Of a stretch of 20,000 nucleotides of DNA, positions 14,453 through 20,000 are shown one piece after another. A model generated the notes under the pieces. The model was not told the origin of the DNA. It saw nothing but the letters and a program-made list of their open reading frames with translations, and made no database searches. The stretch's first letter is position 1. Every line of letters starts with the position of its first letter. The position numbers and the translations under genes were made by a program. Source of the stretch: an uncultured virus (IMG/VR IMGVR_UViG_3300034279_001265) (taxonomy: Duplodnaviria; Heunggongvirae; Uroviricota; Caudoviricetes); IMG/VR virus record IMGVR_UViG_3300034279_001265. One strand, written 5' to 3'.

Positions 14453-14480
14453 AAGTCATCCAACCTGCACACGCAGACAC

Positions 14481-14521
14481 AAGAGAGATGCTCTGTCACA
14501 AGGGCGTCTCTCTTGGTCTTT
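14481..14521 (+). terminator. Module-ending hairpin / terminator
   Basis: 14-bp stem AAGAGAGATGCTCT/AGGGCGTCTCTCTT with GU pairs, then GGTCTTT. Confidence 0.6.
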
Positions 14522-14534
14522 AAGGCGTTTGATT

Positions 14535-14568
14535 AACCTTCAACCCACCTTGTTGTTCAACTAAACCC
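14535..14568 (+). promoter_or_regulatory. Repeated upstream motif, copy 2, with GTTCAACTAAACCC leader
   Basis: AACCTTCAACCCACC-TTGTTGTTCAACTAAACCC, 41 nt before GTG 14576. Confidence 0.65.
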
Positions 14569-14575
14569 AATTCTC

Positions 14576-14815
14576 GTGCACAAAATCAAATCTTTCGTCA
14601 TGCCTGCCCAGGTGCTTGCATGGCTACTCATCTCAGGTACCATGACAGTTATCTGGCATGTATTTGTTGCAGGCGCTATCAGCATGCTAACACGCAGTCA
14701 GACATTCATGGATGTTAGCGACTCATATACCACATGGAATATGAGCTTCATGATGTTCGTTTTCTCACTAATTATTGTTGGCGTATGGTTGTGGGCGGGA
14801 GAGTCAAAGCGTTGA
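14576..14815 (+). CDS. Small membrane protein (2 TM)
   Basis: 79 aa, two hydrophobic helices; GTG start at the conserved distance from the motif. Confidence 0.65.
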   Translation: MHKIKSFVMPAQVLAWLLISGTMTVIWHVFVAGAISMLTRSQTFMDVSDSYTTWNMSFMMFVFSLIIVGVWLWAGESKR

Positions 14816-14845
14816 CCACTGGCTGTCTGGTATCTGTTGGCACAT

Positions 14846-14880
14846 GGTTGTGGGAGGATTAGTCCTCTCACAGCCTTTGT
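14846..14880 (+). terminator. Module-ending hairpin / terminator
   Basis: GGTTGTGGGAGGA-TTAG-TCCTCTCACAGCC then TTTGT. Confidence 0.6.
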
Positions 14881-14890
14881 GTCTCATATC

Positions 14891-14924
14891 AACCTTCAAC
14901 TCCCCTTTTGGTTCAACTAAACCC
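14891..14924 (+). promoter_or_regulatory. Repeated upstream motif, copy 3, with GTTCAACTAAACCC leader
   Basis: AACCTTCAACTCCCC-TTTTGGTTCAACTAAACCC, 41 nt before ATG 14932. Confidence 0.65.
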
Positions 14925-14931
14925 TAAACTC

Positions 14932-15156
14932 ATGTTAAAATCTTTGATTATCCAACAATCACGCCCCACAGACCGCATTGCTGTTGCCGACGAGTACATA
15001 AATGTCGACAAAGAAACTCATTTGTTTGTACACGGCATGGTAATAGATGCTAAAAAGAGTCCTTTTGTAAAGCGCGTCACCGCATTCAATAAGACTGTCT
15101 ACTTGGTCAACATAGACCTCATGATGAGAATTGAGGCGTCTAACCTTTTAACATAA
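14932..15156 (+). CDS. Hypothetical protein (74 aa)
   Basis: ATG 14932 (MLKSLIIQ...) preferred over TTG 14908, which lies inside the repeated leader. Confidence 0.65.
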   Translation: MLKSLIIQQSRPTDRIAVADEYINVDKETHLFVHGMVIDAKKSPFVKRVTAFNKTVYLVNIDLMMRIEASNLLT

Positions 15157-15162
15157 ACCACT

Positions 15163-15201
15163 GACCCTCCTGCGATAGCATCAAAGGAGGGTCTTTTGTT
15201 T
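15163..15201 (+). terminator. Rho-independent terminator
   Basis: GACCCTCCT...AGGAGGGTC followed by TTTTGTTT. Confidence 0.7.
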
Positions 15202-15209
15202 CTCACTGC

Positions 15210-15224
15210 AACCTTCAACCCCCC
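15210..15224 (+). promoter_or_regulatory. Repeated upstream motif, copy 4 (AACCTTCAACCCCCC)
   Basis: Followed by ...CACTAAACCCTAA and ATG 15272. Confidence 0.65.
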
Positions 15225-15271
15225 TTTTCATTCAGTTCATTTTGTTTCACTAAACCCTAATTTAAACTACC

Positions 15272-16024: not shown

Positions 16025-16516
16025 ATGTCTCAAGTCCAAATCATCCCCAACTCCACCACAGGTAGCCTCATTACTCCGTTCAAAAACAATGCTGAGTACG
16101 GTTACCTACAATTGTCTCAGTCCTCTATGATCCCCGAAGGAAGTTGGATCAGAGAACGCAAGCGTAGCACCCTGTTGCGCGCTAAGTGCGACGTGTTGCA
16201 GCGTTTTGTGCAGTCTAACAAGACACTGTCACTCCCTGGACACATCGTTGTCAAAGAGTACGTTGAAAGCGAAGTTCCTGAGAATCTCTTTGAACAGTTC
16301 GCTAACAAGAATCTACCCGCTTCTCAAGCACTTGACAGTTTTGTCAAACGCGCAGGTCAAGACGGCGTAGAACTCTGTGTAGACGGTGAACGCATCATCA
16401 GATTCTCTGTGTATGACGCAACCGGTCAAGACCAGGATGTTTATGTACAGCACAACAACACCGATGCTGTACGTGAATTCAACGCTGTACGCAATTCTCA
16501 GAACGCAAAACTCTAA
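16025..16516 (+). CDS. Conserved hypothetical protein, paralog B of tandem pair
   Basis: Start ATG 16025 (MSQVQIIPNSTTG) aligns with the N-terminus of paralog A; the 15941 TTG extension runs through the regulatory repeat. Confidence 0.85.
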   Translation: MSQVQIIPNSTTGSLITPFKNNAEYGYLQLSQSSMIPEGSWIRERKRSTLLRAKCDVLQRFVQSNKTLSLPGHIVVKEYVESEVPENLFEQFANKNLPASQALDSFVKRAGQDGVELCVDGERIIRFSVYDATGQDQDVYVQHNNTDAVREFNAVRNSQNAKL

Positions 16517-16541
16517 GAATTGTAAAGCACTACAACTAATT

Positions 16542-16597
16542 TCTGAGAGAGTTGCTGAAGATTTAATAAGTCTTTAGCACTCTCTTAGATTTTTTTT
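16542..16597 (+). terminator. Rho-independent terminator
   Basis: TCTGAGAGAG-T-TGCTGAAGA / TCTTTAGCA-CTCTCTTAGA long stem followed by T8. Confidence 0.75.
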
Positions 16598-16754
16598 GTA
16601 AACGTAATGATTCCACAAGTAATTGATATACAAGAACTTATGTGAGTGGTAAGACACCCTCACTCAATACTTGAATGATCAAGAACACCTGTAGAAATCA
16701 AAAAATTTGACACTAAATGGCTATAAACCACTTGTTTTTGCCAGACAGTGTCAT

Positions 16755-16950
16755 TCTCATGCACCAGTTGTAGTAGTAAGATTAGACTTATCTTACTAGT
16801 AAGTCCTTACATTAAGTCTCTGTAAAACCTCCCTATGTCTATACATGAAAAGACTTGAGGTTGAATGCTAGGCAGCAGAGTGTGTTTTGAAGGCAAGGTA
16901 TTAAGAGCAAGAGCGCTACTGATATACTACTACAACTAAGTGCTATGAGA
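16755..16950 (+). ncRNA. Structured RNA, 'AGTTGTA...TACAACTWAGTGC' motif copy A
   Basis: Long-range pairing TCTCAT/ATGAGA, GCAC/GTGC and perfect 13-bp AGTTGTAGTAGTA (16766-16778)/TACTACTACAACT (16925-16937); no ORF. Confidence 0.55.
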
Positions 16951-16979
16951 GAGATATCTTCTTATCTTCTCTCTTCATG

Positions 16980-17170
16980 TAGAATCATAAGAGTCACCCG
17001 CGCCAGGCAGATCTGTGAGAAAAACAATACCGCTCCTCTCCTCTGGTTTATGCAGACCTGTTAACAAAGATGATATCACCATCATCTTGTCTGTGTAGAC
17101 TACAATCAAACGATAAAAGCAGACCAACGAGCGGCGTTGGTGTGTCTGGCGTTGGTACTCTAATGTTCTA
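16980..17170 (+). ncRNA. Rod-like structured RNA candidate
   Basis: Nested stems GAGT/ACTC, CGCCAGGCA/TGTCTGGCG, CAATACCGCTC/GAGCGGCGTTG, GGTTTATGCAGAC/GTCTGTGTAGACT, AAGATGAT/ATCATCTT; GU wobbles favour the plus strand. Confidence 0.55.
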
Positions 17171-17207
17171 TTTATATCATATTGTCCACTAAAACCTTCT
17201 AATTAAC

Positions 17208-17477
17208 ATGAACCTTAAAAAACTATTTGTATTTCTCACACTTTTGGTTAGTGTGATAAGCTTGTCTTCTTTTGGTATTAAAGCCTATGTTGATTATGAG
17301 GTTCTCAACACTCTTGAGGATATGAAAGAGTGGGTTGAGTATGACATGGCTGAATGCACCGATTCATGCATGACCAGCAAGTTGGATACTTACAAGCTCA
17401 ATCTAGATTTTTGCATTAAAAGACTGCGTAATCAAAATTCACACACTAAACGTGCATCTCATGACAATGACTATTGA
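17208..17477 (+). CDS. Hypothetical protein with N-terminal signal/TM segment
   Basis: MNLKKLFVFLTLLVSVISLSSFG; CACTAAAACC leader similar to those of the upstream modules. Confidence 0.7.
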   Translation: MNLKKLFVFLTLLVSVISLSSFGIKAYVDYEVLNTLEDMKEWVEYDMAECTDSCMTSKLDTYKLNLDFCIKRLRNQNSHTKRASHDNDY

Positions 17478-17712
17478 CGAATTCTTTAAACAACACAGTT
17501 CTCAGCTTGTAAAACTGCATGAAGACGACTCTGAAACAGGCAACTTCAGGCTCTTTTGTCCTGAAGAATGCTCTACTGCTACCCATTACAAAGACAATGG
17601 TTATGTTTTAGCGTCTATTTTTGAAGATCTTGACGGTGATGAGTATGTTGTCCTGGACAACGACTCAGATGATGCATTAGACAAAGTTGGTTTCTTTATC
17701 CTGCAACCTTAA
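17467..17712 (+). CDS. Acidic hypothetical protein
   Basis: D/E-rich ORF; start at ATG 17467 or 17461, overlapping the previous gene's end. Confidence 0.65.
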   Translation: MTIDEFFKQHSSQLVKLHEDDSETGNFRLFCPEECSTATHYKDNGYVLASIFEDLDGDEYVVLDNDSDDALDKVGFFILQP

Positions 17713-17726
17713 AATTTACAAAACCA

Positions 17727-17840
17727 ATGAAATTAAAAGTTACTGGTCAAGATAGAGCATACTATCTTATCGTAGTTCTTGGAGTTGTAACCATACTTTT
17801 CAGAATTGTTTGTCTTATCCTTTATCCTTTAAACCCATAA
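17727..17840 (+). CDS. Small single-TM protein (37 aa), not in ORF track
   Basis: MKLKVTGQDRAYYLIVVLGVVTILFRIVCLILYPLNP*; AAAACCA leader; fills the gap between neighbours. Confidence 0.6.
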   Translation: MKLKVTGQDRAYYLIVVLGVVTILFRIVCLILYPLNP

Positions 17841-17845
17841 ATCCT

Positions 17846-18205
17846 GTGAATAATTTAACCGGCTCAAAGTTTTTGCACCCTCGTTTCTGGACACAATCAG
17901 AAGAAGCTATTGTCACTCTTATTGTAAACAACCGTAAGAAAAACAAGACCCTTCACCATGCGTTTACTAAAGCAGCACGCGCTACAAACCGCAGCGTTTC
18001 AGCTGTTGCTGTTCGCTATTACACAAATTTGAAACCCACAAGTGTTATTGCCGGCAATGTACACAAAAAGATTACAGTGGGTAATGTCAGTAAAAGACAA
18101 ACATTAGGTGTTGAAATGAACACACAGCTTGTCTGTTTTGTCAAAACGCTGTTCACAAGACTTACACCTGCTGAGAAAGCAGAAGTATTGAAAAACCTAG
18201 GTTAG
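17846..18205 (+). CDS. Myb/SANT-like (RsfA-type) HTH protein
   Basis: WTQSEEAIV...HAFTKAARATNRSVSAVAVRYYTNLK resembles the W(T/S)xEE...AF..aa..l.Rs..a...R(W/Y) pattern; GTG 17846 is the likely start. Confidence 0.6.
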   Translation: MNNLTGSKFLHPRFWTQSEEAIVTLIVNNRKKNKTLHHAFTKAARATNRSVSAVAVRYYTNLKPTSVIAGNVHKKITVGNVSKRQTLGVEMNTQLVCFVKTLFTRLTPAEKAEVLKNLG

Positions 18206-18220
18206 GTTTGACCCACCACT

Positions 18221-18245
18221 GGCATACTGGTTAAAGTATGCTTTT
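18221..18245 (+). terminator. Putative terminator
   Basis: GGCATACT-GGTTAA-AGTATGCT-TTT just after the HTH gene. Confidence 0.5.
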
Positions 18246-18317
18246 AGCATGAAAACTTACTAGTTCTCTGTTTTTACTATAACAATCTGACCGCACAGCT
18301 GAGTGCAAATGGTATTA

Positions 18318-18399
18318 ATAGAGGTAAGCAGTTGTAATCTCCTTTGCTGGAGTTAAATAGGGGATTTATGACGCAGAACCAGTTACAACTTAGTGCTAT
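18318..18399 (+). ncRNA. Structured RNA motif copy B
   Basis: GGTAAGCAGTTGTAAT (18323-18338) ... TTACAACTTAGTGC (18383-18396). Confidence 0.55.
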
Positions 18400-18403
18400 A
18401 CTT

Positions 18404-18516
18404 TGTCTAAAACAACTGCAGTGCATGAAGGGTGTTTACAAGGGTTGATCACCTTATTGCACCTACGAAGGCTTAACAAGCCACTTGAAACGTAGCACTG
18501 TGGTTGTTTTTAGACA
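18404..18516 (+). ncRNA. Multi-stem structured RNA candidate
   Basis: 16-bp basal stem AAAACAACTGCAGTGC/GCACTGTGGTTGTTTT (2 GU pairs), internal GGGTG/CACCT, AAGG/CCTT, GGCTT/AAGCC and CTACG/CGTAG stems. Confidence 0.5.
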
Positions 18517-18517
18517 T

Positions 18518-18608
18518 TGTGTTGTTCCCTTGAGAAAGGAATATGGAAGCATAATAAATGGAAGGAAATTACGAACATTTTCCACAACACAGAGGACTTC
18601 TCATCCTC
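18518..18608 (+). ncRNA. Pseudoknot / kissing-loop RNA candidate directly 5' of the tRNA-like gene
   Basis: TGTGTTG/CAACACA stem; loop TGAGAA (18531-18536) of the TTCC/GGAA hairpin is complementary to loop TTCTCA (18598-18603) of the GAGGA/TCCTC hairpin. Confidence 0.5.
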
Positions 18609-18613
18609 AACAC

Positions 18614-18709
18614 AGTCAGGTGGCGGAATGGTAAACGCTCGCTTCAAGGTGCGGTCAGTCAACGAAATGTAAAACTGACTTGCAGGTTCGAATCCTGTCC
18701 TGACTACCA
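18614..18709 (+). tRNA. tRNA-Leu-like RNA with aberrant anticodon arm (possibly non-decoding)
   Basis: Acceptor AGTCAGG/CCTGACT + A + CCA; Leu-type D arm GCG-GAATGGTAAA-CGC; T arm GCAGG-TTCGAAT-CCTGT; anticodon stem only 3-4 bp with 8-nt loop TTCAAGGT; long variable arm GTCAGT/ACTGAC. Confidence 0.75.
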
Positions 18710-18972
18710 AGTTAACCACACTAAGACTAGAAACGTGGTGACAGCGTGGAAAGACACGCGTTTAATGTACCATTCTCACGTGGATATAAAGACTTCTTAG
18801 TAGTAACCATAGGTTTACAGTAACAATACTGGATGAAATTCTCCTATGCAATATTGTTTATGCTCAAGAGATACTAAGATGTAAAACCACACTGATTAAT
18901 TACAGGTTATCTAGATAACTTCTTCACAATATATATGTTTTAAACGCAACAAGAATGGTGAAGGTAAATCAG

Positions 18973-19116
18973 TCTCCCAAGGGTGAGCAGTTGTAATAGA
19001 GTAATGAAACATATAGAGTTGAGAAGTTAGCAAATAAATCTTCTTAATGTCCTAGCGGGCATTCCTATGTGTTAGTAATTACTAGTTTAAACCTATTACA
19101 ACTAAGTGCAGAGGGA
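18973..19116 (+). ncRNA. Structured RNA motif copy C
   Basis: GGTGAGCAGTTGTAATAG (18982-18999) ... CTATTACAACTAAGTGCAGAGGGA (19093-19116); 11-bp perfect stem. Confidence 0.55.
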
Positions 19117-19120
19117 ACGC

Positions 19121-19175
19121 GGCAAGTGCAAGGTGTCTGGTTTCTCATACCCAGGCACCTCACTTGTTGTTTTTT
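19121..19175 (+). terminator. Rho-independent terminator ending the ncRNA island
   Basis: GGCAAGTG-CA-AGGTGTCTGG / CCAGGCACCT-CACTTGTT followed by GTTTTTT. Confidence 0.7.
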
Positions 19176-19216
19176 AAAACTTATTTGATATTAACTTTAC
19201 AACTTAAATTTTAATT

Positions 19217-19423
19217 ATGAAAAAACTTTTTGTTTTTATCACAATCATCTTGACAATTGGTTGTGAAAATAATCGTCCGTATAAAGTTGTAAATGTAAAC
19301 AGCTTGAACGACAGTACTTGTAAGTATGTATTGTCACGATCTAATGGATTTGGTCCACAAGTCAAAACTATGACAGCACCATGCGGGAAGTACACACTTT
19401 TCCAAACCATAAACGAAAAATGA
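19217..19423 (+). CDS. Small putative lipoprotein
   Basis: MKKLFVFITIILTIG|C lipoprotein-type signal; AT-rich leader. Confidence 0.65.
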   Translation: MKKLFVFITIILTIGCENNRPYKVVNVNSLNDSTCKYVLSRSNGFGPQVKTMTAPCGKYTLFQTINEK

Positions 19424-19704
19424 CAAGAGAAAAATTTATAAAAAAGTGGCTTGGTAATAAAGACTACCAATACACAGAAGAAAACCGAGATTTAATGCGA
19501 GATGATTTAGACAAAGTGATAAACCGAGCATTGCAACAACCACTTGTTGGCGGTTCGTTGCCGATGTACGATGTTGAAGAATTGAATGAAATTGTAAAAG
19601 AACTGAATAGTGGGAAACTCTCTCTGTTTGATTTTGTAGGTAAAGTTTGGAACAAAGCTTATATACTCGGATGTATTGATGGGTTGAAAGGCAATGACCA
19701 CTAA
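19420..19704 (+). CDS. Hypothetical protein spanning a GTT repeat site (cassette-like gene 1)
   Basis: ATG 19420 overlaps the TGA of the previous gene; contains LVGGSLP encoded by the repeat; stop TAA lies inside CACTAAC. Confidence 0.7.
   Translation: MTREKFIKKWLGNKDYQYTEENRDLMRDDLDKVINRALQQPLVGGSLPMYDVEELNEIVKELNSGKLSLFDFVGKVWNKAYILGCIDGLKGNDH
19546..19562 (+). repeat. Cassette-start half-site GTTGGCGGTTCGTTGCC
   Basis: 15 of 16 nt identical to 19825-19840 and an imperfect inverted repeat of 19690-19705. Confidence 0.75.
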
Positions 19705-19840
19705 CGGTTTGCGTATTGCTGACGTTGCCAATTTGAAAAACAAATGTTGAATACTTAAATAAAAGTTGATATGAAAATTGAAGTTAAAATTACCGATGAA
19801 GCTGGCAATGTTCAGCAATACGATGTTAGCGGTTCGTTGC
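19690..19840. repeat. attC-like imperfect inverted-repeat site
   Basis: GCAATGACCACTAAC-ggtttg-CGTATTGCTGA-CGTTGCCA ...72 nt... TGGCAATG-T-TCAGCAATACG-at-GTTAGCGGTTCGTTGC; AAC/GTT cores, asymmetric spacer, single extrahelical base. Confidence 0.7.
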
Positions 19841-19968
19841 TATTGGATGATAGCAAATTGAAACAACTAATATGGGAAGATTGGGAAGGTGAAATTAAAG
19901 AGGAAGACCCAAGACAAATGGTTTTTAAGTATATGAAAATGATGCGTAGTGAGTTTGTTAAGAATTGA
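19771..19968 (+). CDS. Hypothetical protein starting inside the attC-like loop (cassette-like gene 2)
   Basis: 65 aa; contains DVSGSLL encoded by the repeat; stop TGA lies inside AATTGACCGCTAAC. Confidence 0.7.
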   Translation: MKIEVKITDEAGNVQQYDVSGSLLLDDSKLKQLIWEDWEGEIKEEDPRQMVFKYMKMMRSEFVKN

Positions 19969-19976
19969 CCGCTAAC
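19963..19976 (+). repeat. Cassette-end half-site AATTGACCGCTAAC (next site truncated by the window edge)
   Basis: Its reverse complement GTTAGCGGTCAATT matches the first 9 nt of 19825-19838 exactly; similar to 19692-19705. Confidence 0.7.
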
Positions 19977-20000
19977 TCGTTTATTTGTCCAGTTTTCCTT

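Follow-up and report, generated by a model that had tools for sequence, protein, structure and literature searches.

The DNA considered here is a stretch of 20,000 nucleotides, the window, which represents bases 41733–61732 of a viral contig of 121,380 bp with a GC content of 38.8%. Among its 150 ORFs, Pfam searches revealed a replication module, genes for giant virion proteins, and matches to Crass_capsid, CrAss_Ring_1 and CrAss_Ring_2; the genome is that of a freshwater crAss-like phage with a CheckV completeness of 96%. Two small genes near the end of the window, gene 1 (19420–19704, plus strand, 94 aa) and gene 2 (19771–19968, plus strand, 65 aa), lie in a plus-strand run of small ORFan genes, with the structural module on one side and the replication module on the other. 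Genes 1 and 2 and their neighbors gave no above-threshold match in Pfam or PHROGs, blastn of 19100–20000 found no match among deposited phages, and a tRNA was the only match in Rfam. The last 12 bases of the window (19989–20000) differ from the assembly at 9 positions, which does not affect the finding.

The two genes share a 28-nt repeat (19545–19572 and 19824–19851, 79% identity) with a 17-nt core, GTTGGCGGTTCGTTGCC at 19546–19562 and GTTAGCGGTTCGTTGCT at 19825–19841. The 12-mer GCGGTTCGTTGC is present in exactly two copies in the 121,380-bp genome, where ~0.01 exact copies are expected by chance; the remaining 10 matches listed for it all have two mismatches. An earlier note on this DNA had pointed out that the GTT core of the repeat is a valine codon in both genes and that the repeat encodes a common linker. 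This was confirmed from the sequence: GTT stands as codon 43 in gene 1 and as codon 19 in gene 2, and the encoded segments are ...QQPL-VGGSLP and ...QQYD-VSGSLL.

Gene 1 begins with N-part-1 (codons 1–42; 19420..19545, plus strand), whose ATG overlaps the stop of an upstream lipoprotein-like ORF (ATGA). It continues into cassette 1, a segment of 160 nt (19546..19705, plus strand) with a 5′ arm at 19546–19562 and a 3′ arm at 19690–19705, which encodes VGGSLP...KGNDH and has its stop codon, TAA, inside CTAAC. The arms pair over 8 of 9 bp, followed by a TCG/TG internal loop and 5 of 5 bp. An attC-like site of 119 nt (19706..19824, plus strand) then lies between TAAC and GTTA cores. Cassette 2 (152 nt; 19825..19976, plus strand) has a 5′ arm, GTTAGCGGT, at 19825–19833 and a 3′ arm, ACCGCTAAC, at 19968–19976, which form 9 of 9 Watson–Crick pairs. 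There is no ATG near its start and its stop, TGA, is at 19966–19968, so that the product of gene 2 consists of 18 codons from the site and 47 from cassette 2. In the window and in relatives alike, TAAC is directly followed by the beginning of an inter-cassette sequence of a second type, TCGyTyATTyGT... (19977..19988, plus strand), which has three copies in each of two related loci (L005 and L010).

The claim that gene 1 has a different, 42-aa N-terminus fused at the same point is borne out by these boundaries. In relatives the DNA of N-part-1 is conserved from the ATG to GTT and divergent beyond. Since N-part-1 is outside any recognizable hairpin site, and a Met six codons after GTT in cassette 1 (Met49) is conserved in relatives, translation of gene 1 from this internal start is possible.

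The site upstream of gene 2 forms a hairpin in which the 5′ arm (19712–19729) pairs with the 3′ arm (19804–19822, with a bulged T at 19811) as the inner stem, and CTAAC (19701–19705) with GTTAG (19825–19829) as the closing stem. It had been proposed that gene 2 starts in the loop of this hairpin and takes its first 18 amino acids from the site. Both statements hold. The ATG at 19771 is within the ~74-nt loop of a hairpin that is supported by covariation; the loop comprises an A-rich leader and codons 1–11, and the 3′ arm encodes codons 12–18. The predicted RNA fold has a minimum free energy of −38.5 kcal/mol (z = −3.75), and none of 200 shuffled sequences folded as well. In 18 related elements, 89.3% of 411 cells at 23 pairs were paired, compared to 82.0 ± 0.9% in shuffles, none of 500 of which reached that value, and 28–60% in slid-partner controls on the same elements. 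Compensatory double changes occur at seven pairs, and one G·U pair is invariant in 18 of 18. A DNA block of ~125 nt is conserved from TAAC, just past the previous ORF, to GTTAG(C), with abrupt divergence on both sides. Selection on the peptide encoded by N-part-2, the site-derived N-terminus of gene 2, appears weak or unclear, since differing codons in the loop are mostly non-synonymous (372, vs. 53 synonymous). Codons 8–13 were fixed by the search pattern used, hence their invariance is uninformative.

The attC sites of integrons are ~57–141 nt long, with AAC...GTT conserved at the ends; their R and L boxes pair to form an imperfect hairpin, which is interrupted by an unpaired spacer and capped by a variable loop. 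The AAC...GTT ends, the imperfect hairpin, the unpaired spacer and the variable loop are all present in the window site and in 13 of 13 sites of a 362-kb phage (L171) described below. The R boxes match GTTRRRY/RYYYAAC at only 5–6 of 7 positions.

In relatives, as in the window, the two ends of a cassette are reverse complements bounded by GTTA...TAAC. The pairs of ends covary by cassette family (GTTAGCCGTAGTTC/GAATTACGGCTAAC, GTTAGCAGCAGTGC/GCATTGCTGCTAAC, GTTAGGTGCAGTTT/AAATTGCACCTAAC and GTTAGCGGTTCGTTGCC/GGCAATGACCGCTAAC). The 22 distinct end pairs, with both arms in 20 of the 22, gave 308 cells: 233 Watson–Crick, 25 G·U, 4 A·C and 46 other. There are two classes of stem. The first has 9 bp, a TCG/(C)TG internal loop and 5 bp, and is translated as V-S-G-S-L-P ... 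G-N-D-R-stop; the second has 14 continuous bp with G·U at position 11. Permissive scans for inverted repeats, and one of gene ends with RNAduplex, gave too much background to be of use, and stricter scans took their place. At 27 viral loci TAAC and GTTAG(C) are the exact limits of homology, with unrelated flanks beside them, and the crossover can be placed no finer than the 5–6 nt that are shared. At one locus (L094) the end of one cassette and the start of the next are separated by 5 nt.

Among 110 loci with the 15-mer, a matching 3′ arm was present in 33. An ATG-started ORF runs through the 5′ arm in 29 of 33 class-I cassettes and has its stop no more than 14 nt from TAAC. Of 31 distinct cassettes, 27 are open in the sense frame that reads GTT, and one, two and one in the three antisense frames. 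Cassettes with whole genes have the same arms untranslated ahead of their own ATG (L005, 3260–3516, and 10 of the 15 cassettes in L171). In two loci, L022 and L037, the core is in another frame, and the loss of a single base within the site brings the reading back into frame. Because the arms are untranslated in whole-gene cassettes, and because the core is found in other frames at these two loci and in 13 of 39 ORFs started in a site loop, the shared linker is, on the evidence of these comparisons, primarily a translated hairpin arm rather than a protein motif.

One family of cassettes is always found with the same upstream site and with differing downstream flanks, and other cassettes swap behind one and the same site; both cores thus act as boundaries. 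The codon three before GTT in 31 cases was TTA (10), CAA (9), AAA (7), ATA (3), TAA (1) or GTA (1). Such codons, like the 5-nt gap at L094, could reflect an origin of the N-parts by loss of a stop codon. However, the pattern may be structural, since in N-parts encoded in a loop this codon is in the inner stem.

When the two genes were compared with a collection of 5.8 billion proteins and the parts before and after the junction were considered separately, the predicted split was seen in both directions. Matches to gene 1 fell in 89 protein clusters, of which two matched both halves, 63 the N-part only and 24 the C-part only. For gene 2 the corresponding numbers among 105 clusters were 56, 31 and 18. 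N-part-1 was followed by 37 C-part clusters (51 proteins) and N-part-2 by 15 (65 proteins); C-part-1 was preceded by 13 N-part clusters (22 proteins), and C-part-2 was also seen with other N-termini or its own start. The junctions are at V-S-G-S-L, and VSGSL occurs 91 times among the matches. In one cluster (P0023) three modules are strung together. The homologues do not uniformly extend over both halves, as they would without exchange; there is a breakpoint at V-S-G-S-L, and clusters with only the N-part and only the C-part exist for both genes.

Relatives in viral contigs, confirmed by tblastn, agree. In five of six loci only residues 1–47 or 1–51 of gene 1 were matched, and in the sixth residues 24–94 were matched behind a different N-terminus; for gene 2, nine of nine loci match only residues 1–26 to 1–45. 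A DNA pattern for the N-part found 38 stretches, 27 with the gene-2-type N-part, which is fused to about ten different C-parts. None of the cassettes fused to the gene-2-type site has its own start codon. One C-part is a 265-aa N6/N4 DNA methyltransferase, in which the family match begins just past the junction; it is the single exception among cassette proteins that are otherwise ORFans.

In-frame exchange at GTT that swaps C-terminal modules is thus supported at the level of comparative genomics, as is the interpretation that translated recombination sites build chimeric proteins. Two of the earlier claims need to be narrowed. The frame was said to be fixed; GTT is a codon in 26 of the 39 loop-started ORFs and the other 13 use the other two frames. 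The cassettes were said to differ from classical integron cassettes, which carry whole genes. Some of them are indeed C-terminal modules, but most cassettes in the same arrays carry whole genes.

The gene-2-type element extends beyond crAss-like phages. Among five contigs tested, the crAss capsid gene was present in one, and three were giant (334–640 kb), each with a gene for a tyrosine recombinase. The 362-kb phage L171 has at least 15 tandem cassettes, with at least 14 sites in 15 kb. The inter-cassette sites are 40, ~80 or 117–122 nt in length (52–134 nt including the cores). Ten of the cassettes carry whole genes with their own ATG, and five are read from an ATG in the loop of the preceding site. 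The same fold is seen in 13 of 13 sites: a 5-bp outer stem (TAACG/yGTTA), 3–5 unpaired bases on the 5′ side, an inner stem of 12–22 bp, and a loop of 4–75 nt. An ATG that opens an ORF extending 30 or more codons beyond GTTA is present in 39 of 105 distinct sites. These supply 5–36 codons, and 31 of them are 105–131 nt long. Of the 66 sites lacking such a start, 51 precede a cassette with its own start.

The gene that follows the last cassette in L171 encodes a 268-aa Xer-like tyrosine recombinase of the XerA type. Its best models are XerA-type (NF040815, 186 bits, cut-off 220; 4a8e, 3e-35). Against the integron integrase model TIGR02249 it scored 158.6 bits, below the cut-off of 265, and its alignment to IntI4 (2a3v) breaks off at residue 181, short of where the IntI-specific insertion lies. 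The enzyme therefore seems to lack this insertion. In two of three giant-phage copies examined the gene is broken (frameshifted or truncated).

Homologues of the recombinase with 57–100% identity are present in 34 viral contigs (409,044 nt). A structural scan of these contigs, with a background of ~0.4–1 site per 121 kb per strand, found 109 sites on the strand of the recombinase gene, 104 upstream and 5 downstream of it, and 5 on the other strand. Where at least 2 kb of upstream sequence was available, 18 of 20 loci had two or more sites; L191 and L199 had none. Homologues at 14 loci in bacterial genomes, most of them distant, had one site in total, and no host array was found. The arrangement is not that of an integron, where attI and Pc are beside a divergent intI; here the recombinase gene is downstream of the array in the same orientation.

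In the stems of the sites, 44 G·U pairs have the G in the 5′ arm compared to 6 the other way, and the sense fold is the more stable in 10 of 13 sites. The asymmetry here, and that in the cassette arms (25 G·U vs. 4 A·C), suggests that the folded species is the sense strand or RNA.

The window genome is poorer in these elements. No recombinase is encoded among its 150 ORFs, with no match to PF00589. The structural scan found one complete site on the plus strand and none on the minus strand, where shuffled genomes gave ~0.4 per strand. A CALIN has at least two attC sites within a few kb and no intI; the window genome has a single orphan site with two cassettes whose ends pair, and falls outside that definition. 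Since this genome has no recombinase and only one complete site, the two cassettes may be inert relics.

We think it rather probable that the repeat delimits mobile gene cassettes in an integron-like system of freshwater phages, in which exchange at the cores builds chimeric proteins. The proposal starts from what comparison of the sequences establishes, namely the anatomy of cassettes and sites, the covariation of the arms, the exact boundaries of the mosaics, the in-frame ORFs, and the linkage of arrays to the recombinase. A cassette begins with GTTA and an arm and ends with the complementary arm and TAAC. Between neighboring cassettes is an attC-like site, in which a 5-bp outer stem (TAAC/GTTA) is set apart from a long inner stem by a few unpaired bases on the 5′ side, and the loop is variable. 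Roughly one site in three has an enlarged loop that contains an A-rich leader, an ATG and 13–23 codons, and the 3′ arm would be translated as well. Landing behind such a site, a cassette with no start would thus be expressed as a fusion of the N-terminal peptide of the site, the arm-encoded linker (VSGSL) and the domain of the cassette, and the 3′ arm of the cassette would often close the protein as GNDR-stop. Swapping at the GTTA and TAAC cores would have joined one N-part to many C-parts, and one C-part to many N-parts. We infer that the agent of exchange is the 268-aa Xer-like recombinase encoded downstream of arrays in other phages, which probably exchanges cassettes at folded single strands, presumably the sense strand. 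The two cassettes in the window would have arrived by such exchange and now be without the enzyme. The fusions would be translated and used, and the system may be active in this phage.

The hairpins could instead be regulatory or insulating RNA elements of an early polycistronic mRNA, which keep an A-rich initiation region open in the loop, stabilize individual cistrons or serve as processing sites, with the mosaics formed, as with the PeSL cassettes of T4-type phages, by ordinary homologous recombination between these conserved elements when phages co-infect a cell, and no dedicated recombinase. This is the most serious competitor, although we consider it unlikely. The strong bias of G·U pairs to the sense strand, which differs from integrons and keeps a role at the RNA level alive, fits it, as do the start codon within A-rich sequence in the loop and the lack of a recombinase in the window phage. 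A contig from an RNA library (X15, record 20) covers the site and N-part-2, a weak pointer in that it concerns contigs only. The lack of cover of gene 2 among the contigs of X14 and the small RNA shares in X15 and X16 have no bearing either way. In PeSLs, repeated regulatory cassettes are able to bring about modular shuffling and mini-circles (PMC2839356; PMC4122927). Homologous recombination does not explain junctions placed exactly at TAAC and GTTA beside non-homologous flanks. Moreover, the arms differ between cassette families and yet still pair, and in 18 of 20 loci the sites are grouped on one strand, immediately ahead of a gene for a tyrosine recombinase. The region 19700–19830 has no sigma-70-type promoter or terminator. 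This would count against the RNA reading, but the promoter type of the host is probably different and the result is uninformative for Bacteroidota. A preprint on the crAss virion RNA polymerase reports no common early promoter motif (10.1101/2020.03.07.982082), which is neutral for the reading of the site.

That V-S-G-S-L is a protein linker and GNDR a C-terminal tag, with domains shuffled at a coding motif and the hairpins incidental, is improbable. The frequency of VSGSL among the matches and the behavior of the two halves as independent domains are consistent with it, and there is a precedent in polymorphic toxins, which are described as swapping C-terminal domains by recombination (PMC3482391). 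It does not account for arms that stand untranslated before the ATG of whole-gene cassettes, for cores in other frames (13 of the 39 loop-started ORFs, L022 and L037), or for arms that covary as base pairs across families with different encoded peptides. Inverted repeats do flank each C-terminal module, as they would in an invertible segment of the shufflon or Gin/Cin type that switches the C-terminus in one genome. Each site has a single module, no locus showed an inverted form, and the antisense frames of the 31 distinct cassettes are nearly all closed, by which an invertible switch is excluded; we give it almost no weight. A further suggestion, that the N-part is a capsid-targeting or protease-site sequence like those of T4 internal proteins, was considered from sequence alone and dropped.

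The system favored here, cassettes exchanged at hairpin cores, has several points in common with known ones. Integrons and CALINs have been described in 21 phages, virulent phages included; the phage attC sites work with IntI1, methyltransferase cassettes were found, and it is the bottom strand that is recombined in integrons (Qi et al., 2023, PMC9892861). Phages are thus already known to carry orphan attC-like arrays. As in integrons and CALINs, the arrays are co-oriented and consist mostly of single-gene, promoterless cassettes, the sites are ~50–135 nt with invariant AAC...GTT ends, outer and inner stems are split by unpaired bases below a variable loop, and a recombinase of the Xer/IntI clade adjoins the array. 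A cassette for a DNA methyltransferase and orphan arrays in virulent phages are likenesses to the phage CALINs as that paper describes them (PMC9892861). Unlike integrons, the recombinase is short and XerA-like, seemingly without the IntI-specific insertion, and is encoded downstream of the array in the same orientation. The cassette ends pair over 14–17 nt, compared to 6–7 in integrons, and the bias of the G·U pairs favors the sense strand. Roughly one site in three holds a start and N-terminal codons, and some cassettes are C-terminal modules only. The integron unit is an ORF with a 3′ attC, whereas one cassette family here keeps its upstream site while the downstream flank varies.

The PeSLs of T4-type phages are mobile regulatory cassettes (Arbiol et al., 2010, PMC2839356; Comeau et al., 2014, PMC4122927). 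PeSLs share with the present elements a repeated stem-loop, an intergenic position in hyperplastic early regions, and swapped ORFan genes that they bound. PeSLs have a strong early promoter and a terminator, are non-coding and move by homologous recombination, in contrast to the exact 4–5-nt core junctions, covarying arms and translated site seen here. PeSL-like intergenic repeats of the stem-loop type are also present elsewhere in the window, at 14520–15270.

Shufflons and the tail fibers of Mu and P1 switch C-termini in frame by inversion. Like these and other Gin/Cin/Hin systems, the present cassettes join a constant N-terminal part in frame to alternative C-terminal parts inside a coding sequence. 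Those systems invert DNA in one genome and need ORFs on both strands; the present cassettes have closed antisense frames, and their variants are in different genomes. In polymorphic toxins the VENN motif is the junction for displacement of the C-terminus. A short conserved junction motif, a constant N-part and many alternative C-parts are common to both. The toxins differ in that they are large and secreted, have immunity genes, and recombine by homology at a coding motif, while the junction here is a translated hairpin arm in phage early ORFans of 60–100 aa. Integron cassettes can also be expressed as fusions, as in aac(6′)-Ib variants whose N-termini come from upstream sequence. There, too, a cassette without a start is translated from an upstream ATG. 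Such fusions are sporadic and arise at attI or neighboring genes, unlike the starts in 39 of 105 sites here, which are inside the site itself.

Loop-encoded N-termini, in-frame C-terminal cassettes and Xer-linked phage arrays were not found in a search of the openly accessible literature, and starts encoded in the loop together with in-frame C-terminal cassettes are apparently new. The joints of integrons are usually treated as non-coding. Here the joint is translated, with a start and an N-terminal peptide from the site and arms that supply an in-frame linker and a stop; recombination would therefore make new proteins, and not merely reorder genes. For phages it would be a fast route to recombine the domains of small early proteins, and it would broaden the notion of a gene cassette. 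A recombinase of the Xer type that seems to be without a domain thought necessary for attC chemistry is tied to arrays of hairpin sites in at least 18 viral contigs.

A wider reading, which we hold tentatively and at somewhat less than even confidence, is that crAss-like phages and giant freshwater phages of the Bacteroidota type share one integron-like gene-capture system. A minimal Xer-like recombinase would act on sense-strand hairpins, the sites would be portable expression modules that bring a leader, a start codon and a short N-terminal tag, the arms would stay in frame (VSGSL...GNDR-stop), and proteins of two or three modules would be built combinatorially. With sites as expression modules and arms in frame, cassettes would behave like exons. 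If true, this would be exon shuffling without introns, by which early proteins, probably for host takeover or anti-defence, are diversified.

The stretch is present in at least 14 DNA runs from many studies, and the system is abundant in lakes. In one lake run (X14), a contig in which N-part-1 is joined to another cassette coexists with the form found in the window; the two diverge at window position 19557, right after the core.

The protein P0023 is composed of three modules. It begins with the segment encoded by the first 42 codons of gene 1 (N-part-1; gene 1 is window 19420-19704, + strand) and continues with a short second module, to which a third is joined at another ...KPVSGSL junction, the second in the protein; therefore more than two cassettes can be chained by fusion. 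In another locus (L094), the 5' arm of a cassette comes 5 nt after the 3' arm of a cassette (GGCAATGACGCTAAC). Here one cassette is joined directly to another, without the long site between them; the reading frame is closed at the junction.

Upstream of gene 1 lies a lipoprotein-like ORF of 68 aa with a signal peptide and Cys (window 19217-19423, + strand). Its stop codon overlaps the ATG of gene 1 (ATGA), which suggests that the ORF is translationally coupled to N-part-1. The ORF at window 17208 has a similar beginning (88% over 24 nt).

Damaged genes for the Xer-like recombinase were found in two giant phages (L172 6208-6990 and L173 2990-3450), each directly preceded by a cassette. In one of the two, a frameshift lies close to the catalytic C-terminus; in the other, the N-terminal domain is missing.

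Other repeats are present in the early region. Three intergenic copies of a repeat resembling PeSLs, the mobile regulatory stem-loop cassettes of T4-type phages, occur within window 14460-15270, each with a GC-rich hairpin followed by CAACCTTCAACCCnCC, CTAAACCC and, shortly after, an ATG. These represent another type of repeated regulatory cassette, which shares the early region with the hairpin-bounded cassettes. The gene-poor stretch at window 16500-19200 holds the repeated motif (T/C)TACAACTAAGTGC (at 16529, 16929, 18377 and 19095), and inverted-repeat pairs of the form GTTGTA.../...TACAAC are located at genome positions 58499-58668 and 60722-60834. The motif and the inverted repeats may belong to a further family of hairpin-bounded units, or may be small RNAs.

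A tRNA gene of 96 nt was located by ARAGORN at window 18614-18709 on the + strand (Rfam tRNA, 41.3 bits). ARAGORN assigned no amino acid and called the anticodon as four letters (caag); the anticodon loop may be enlarged, or an insert may be present. About 700 nt past the window end there is a tRNA-like stretch (L167 5440-5590, genome about 62440-62590), over which contig depth is very high. From L167 5467 to about 5555, many contigs in three of the four runs (X13, X14 and X15) skip 81-89 bases or differ in their letters. From these alignments, the phage copy seems to contain an intervening sequence of ~87 nt that is absent or replaced in abundant relatives.

Also outside the window are a Tad2-like (anti-Thoeris) gene (L168 7243-7572) and a zeta-toxin/AAA_33 domain within a giant protein of 1368 aa (L170 9165-13268). 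The window is identical to the assembly except in its last 12 bases (19989-20000), where nine positions differ.
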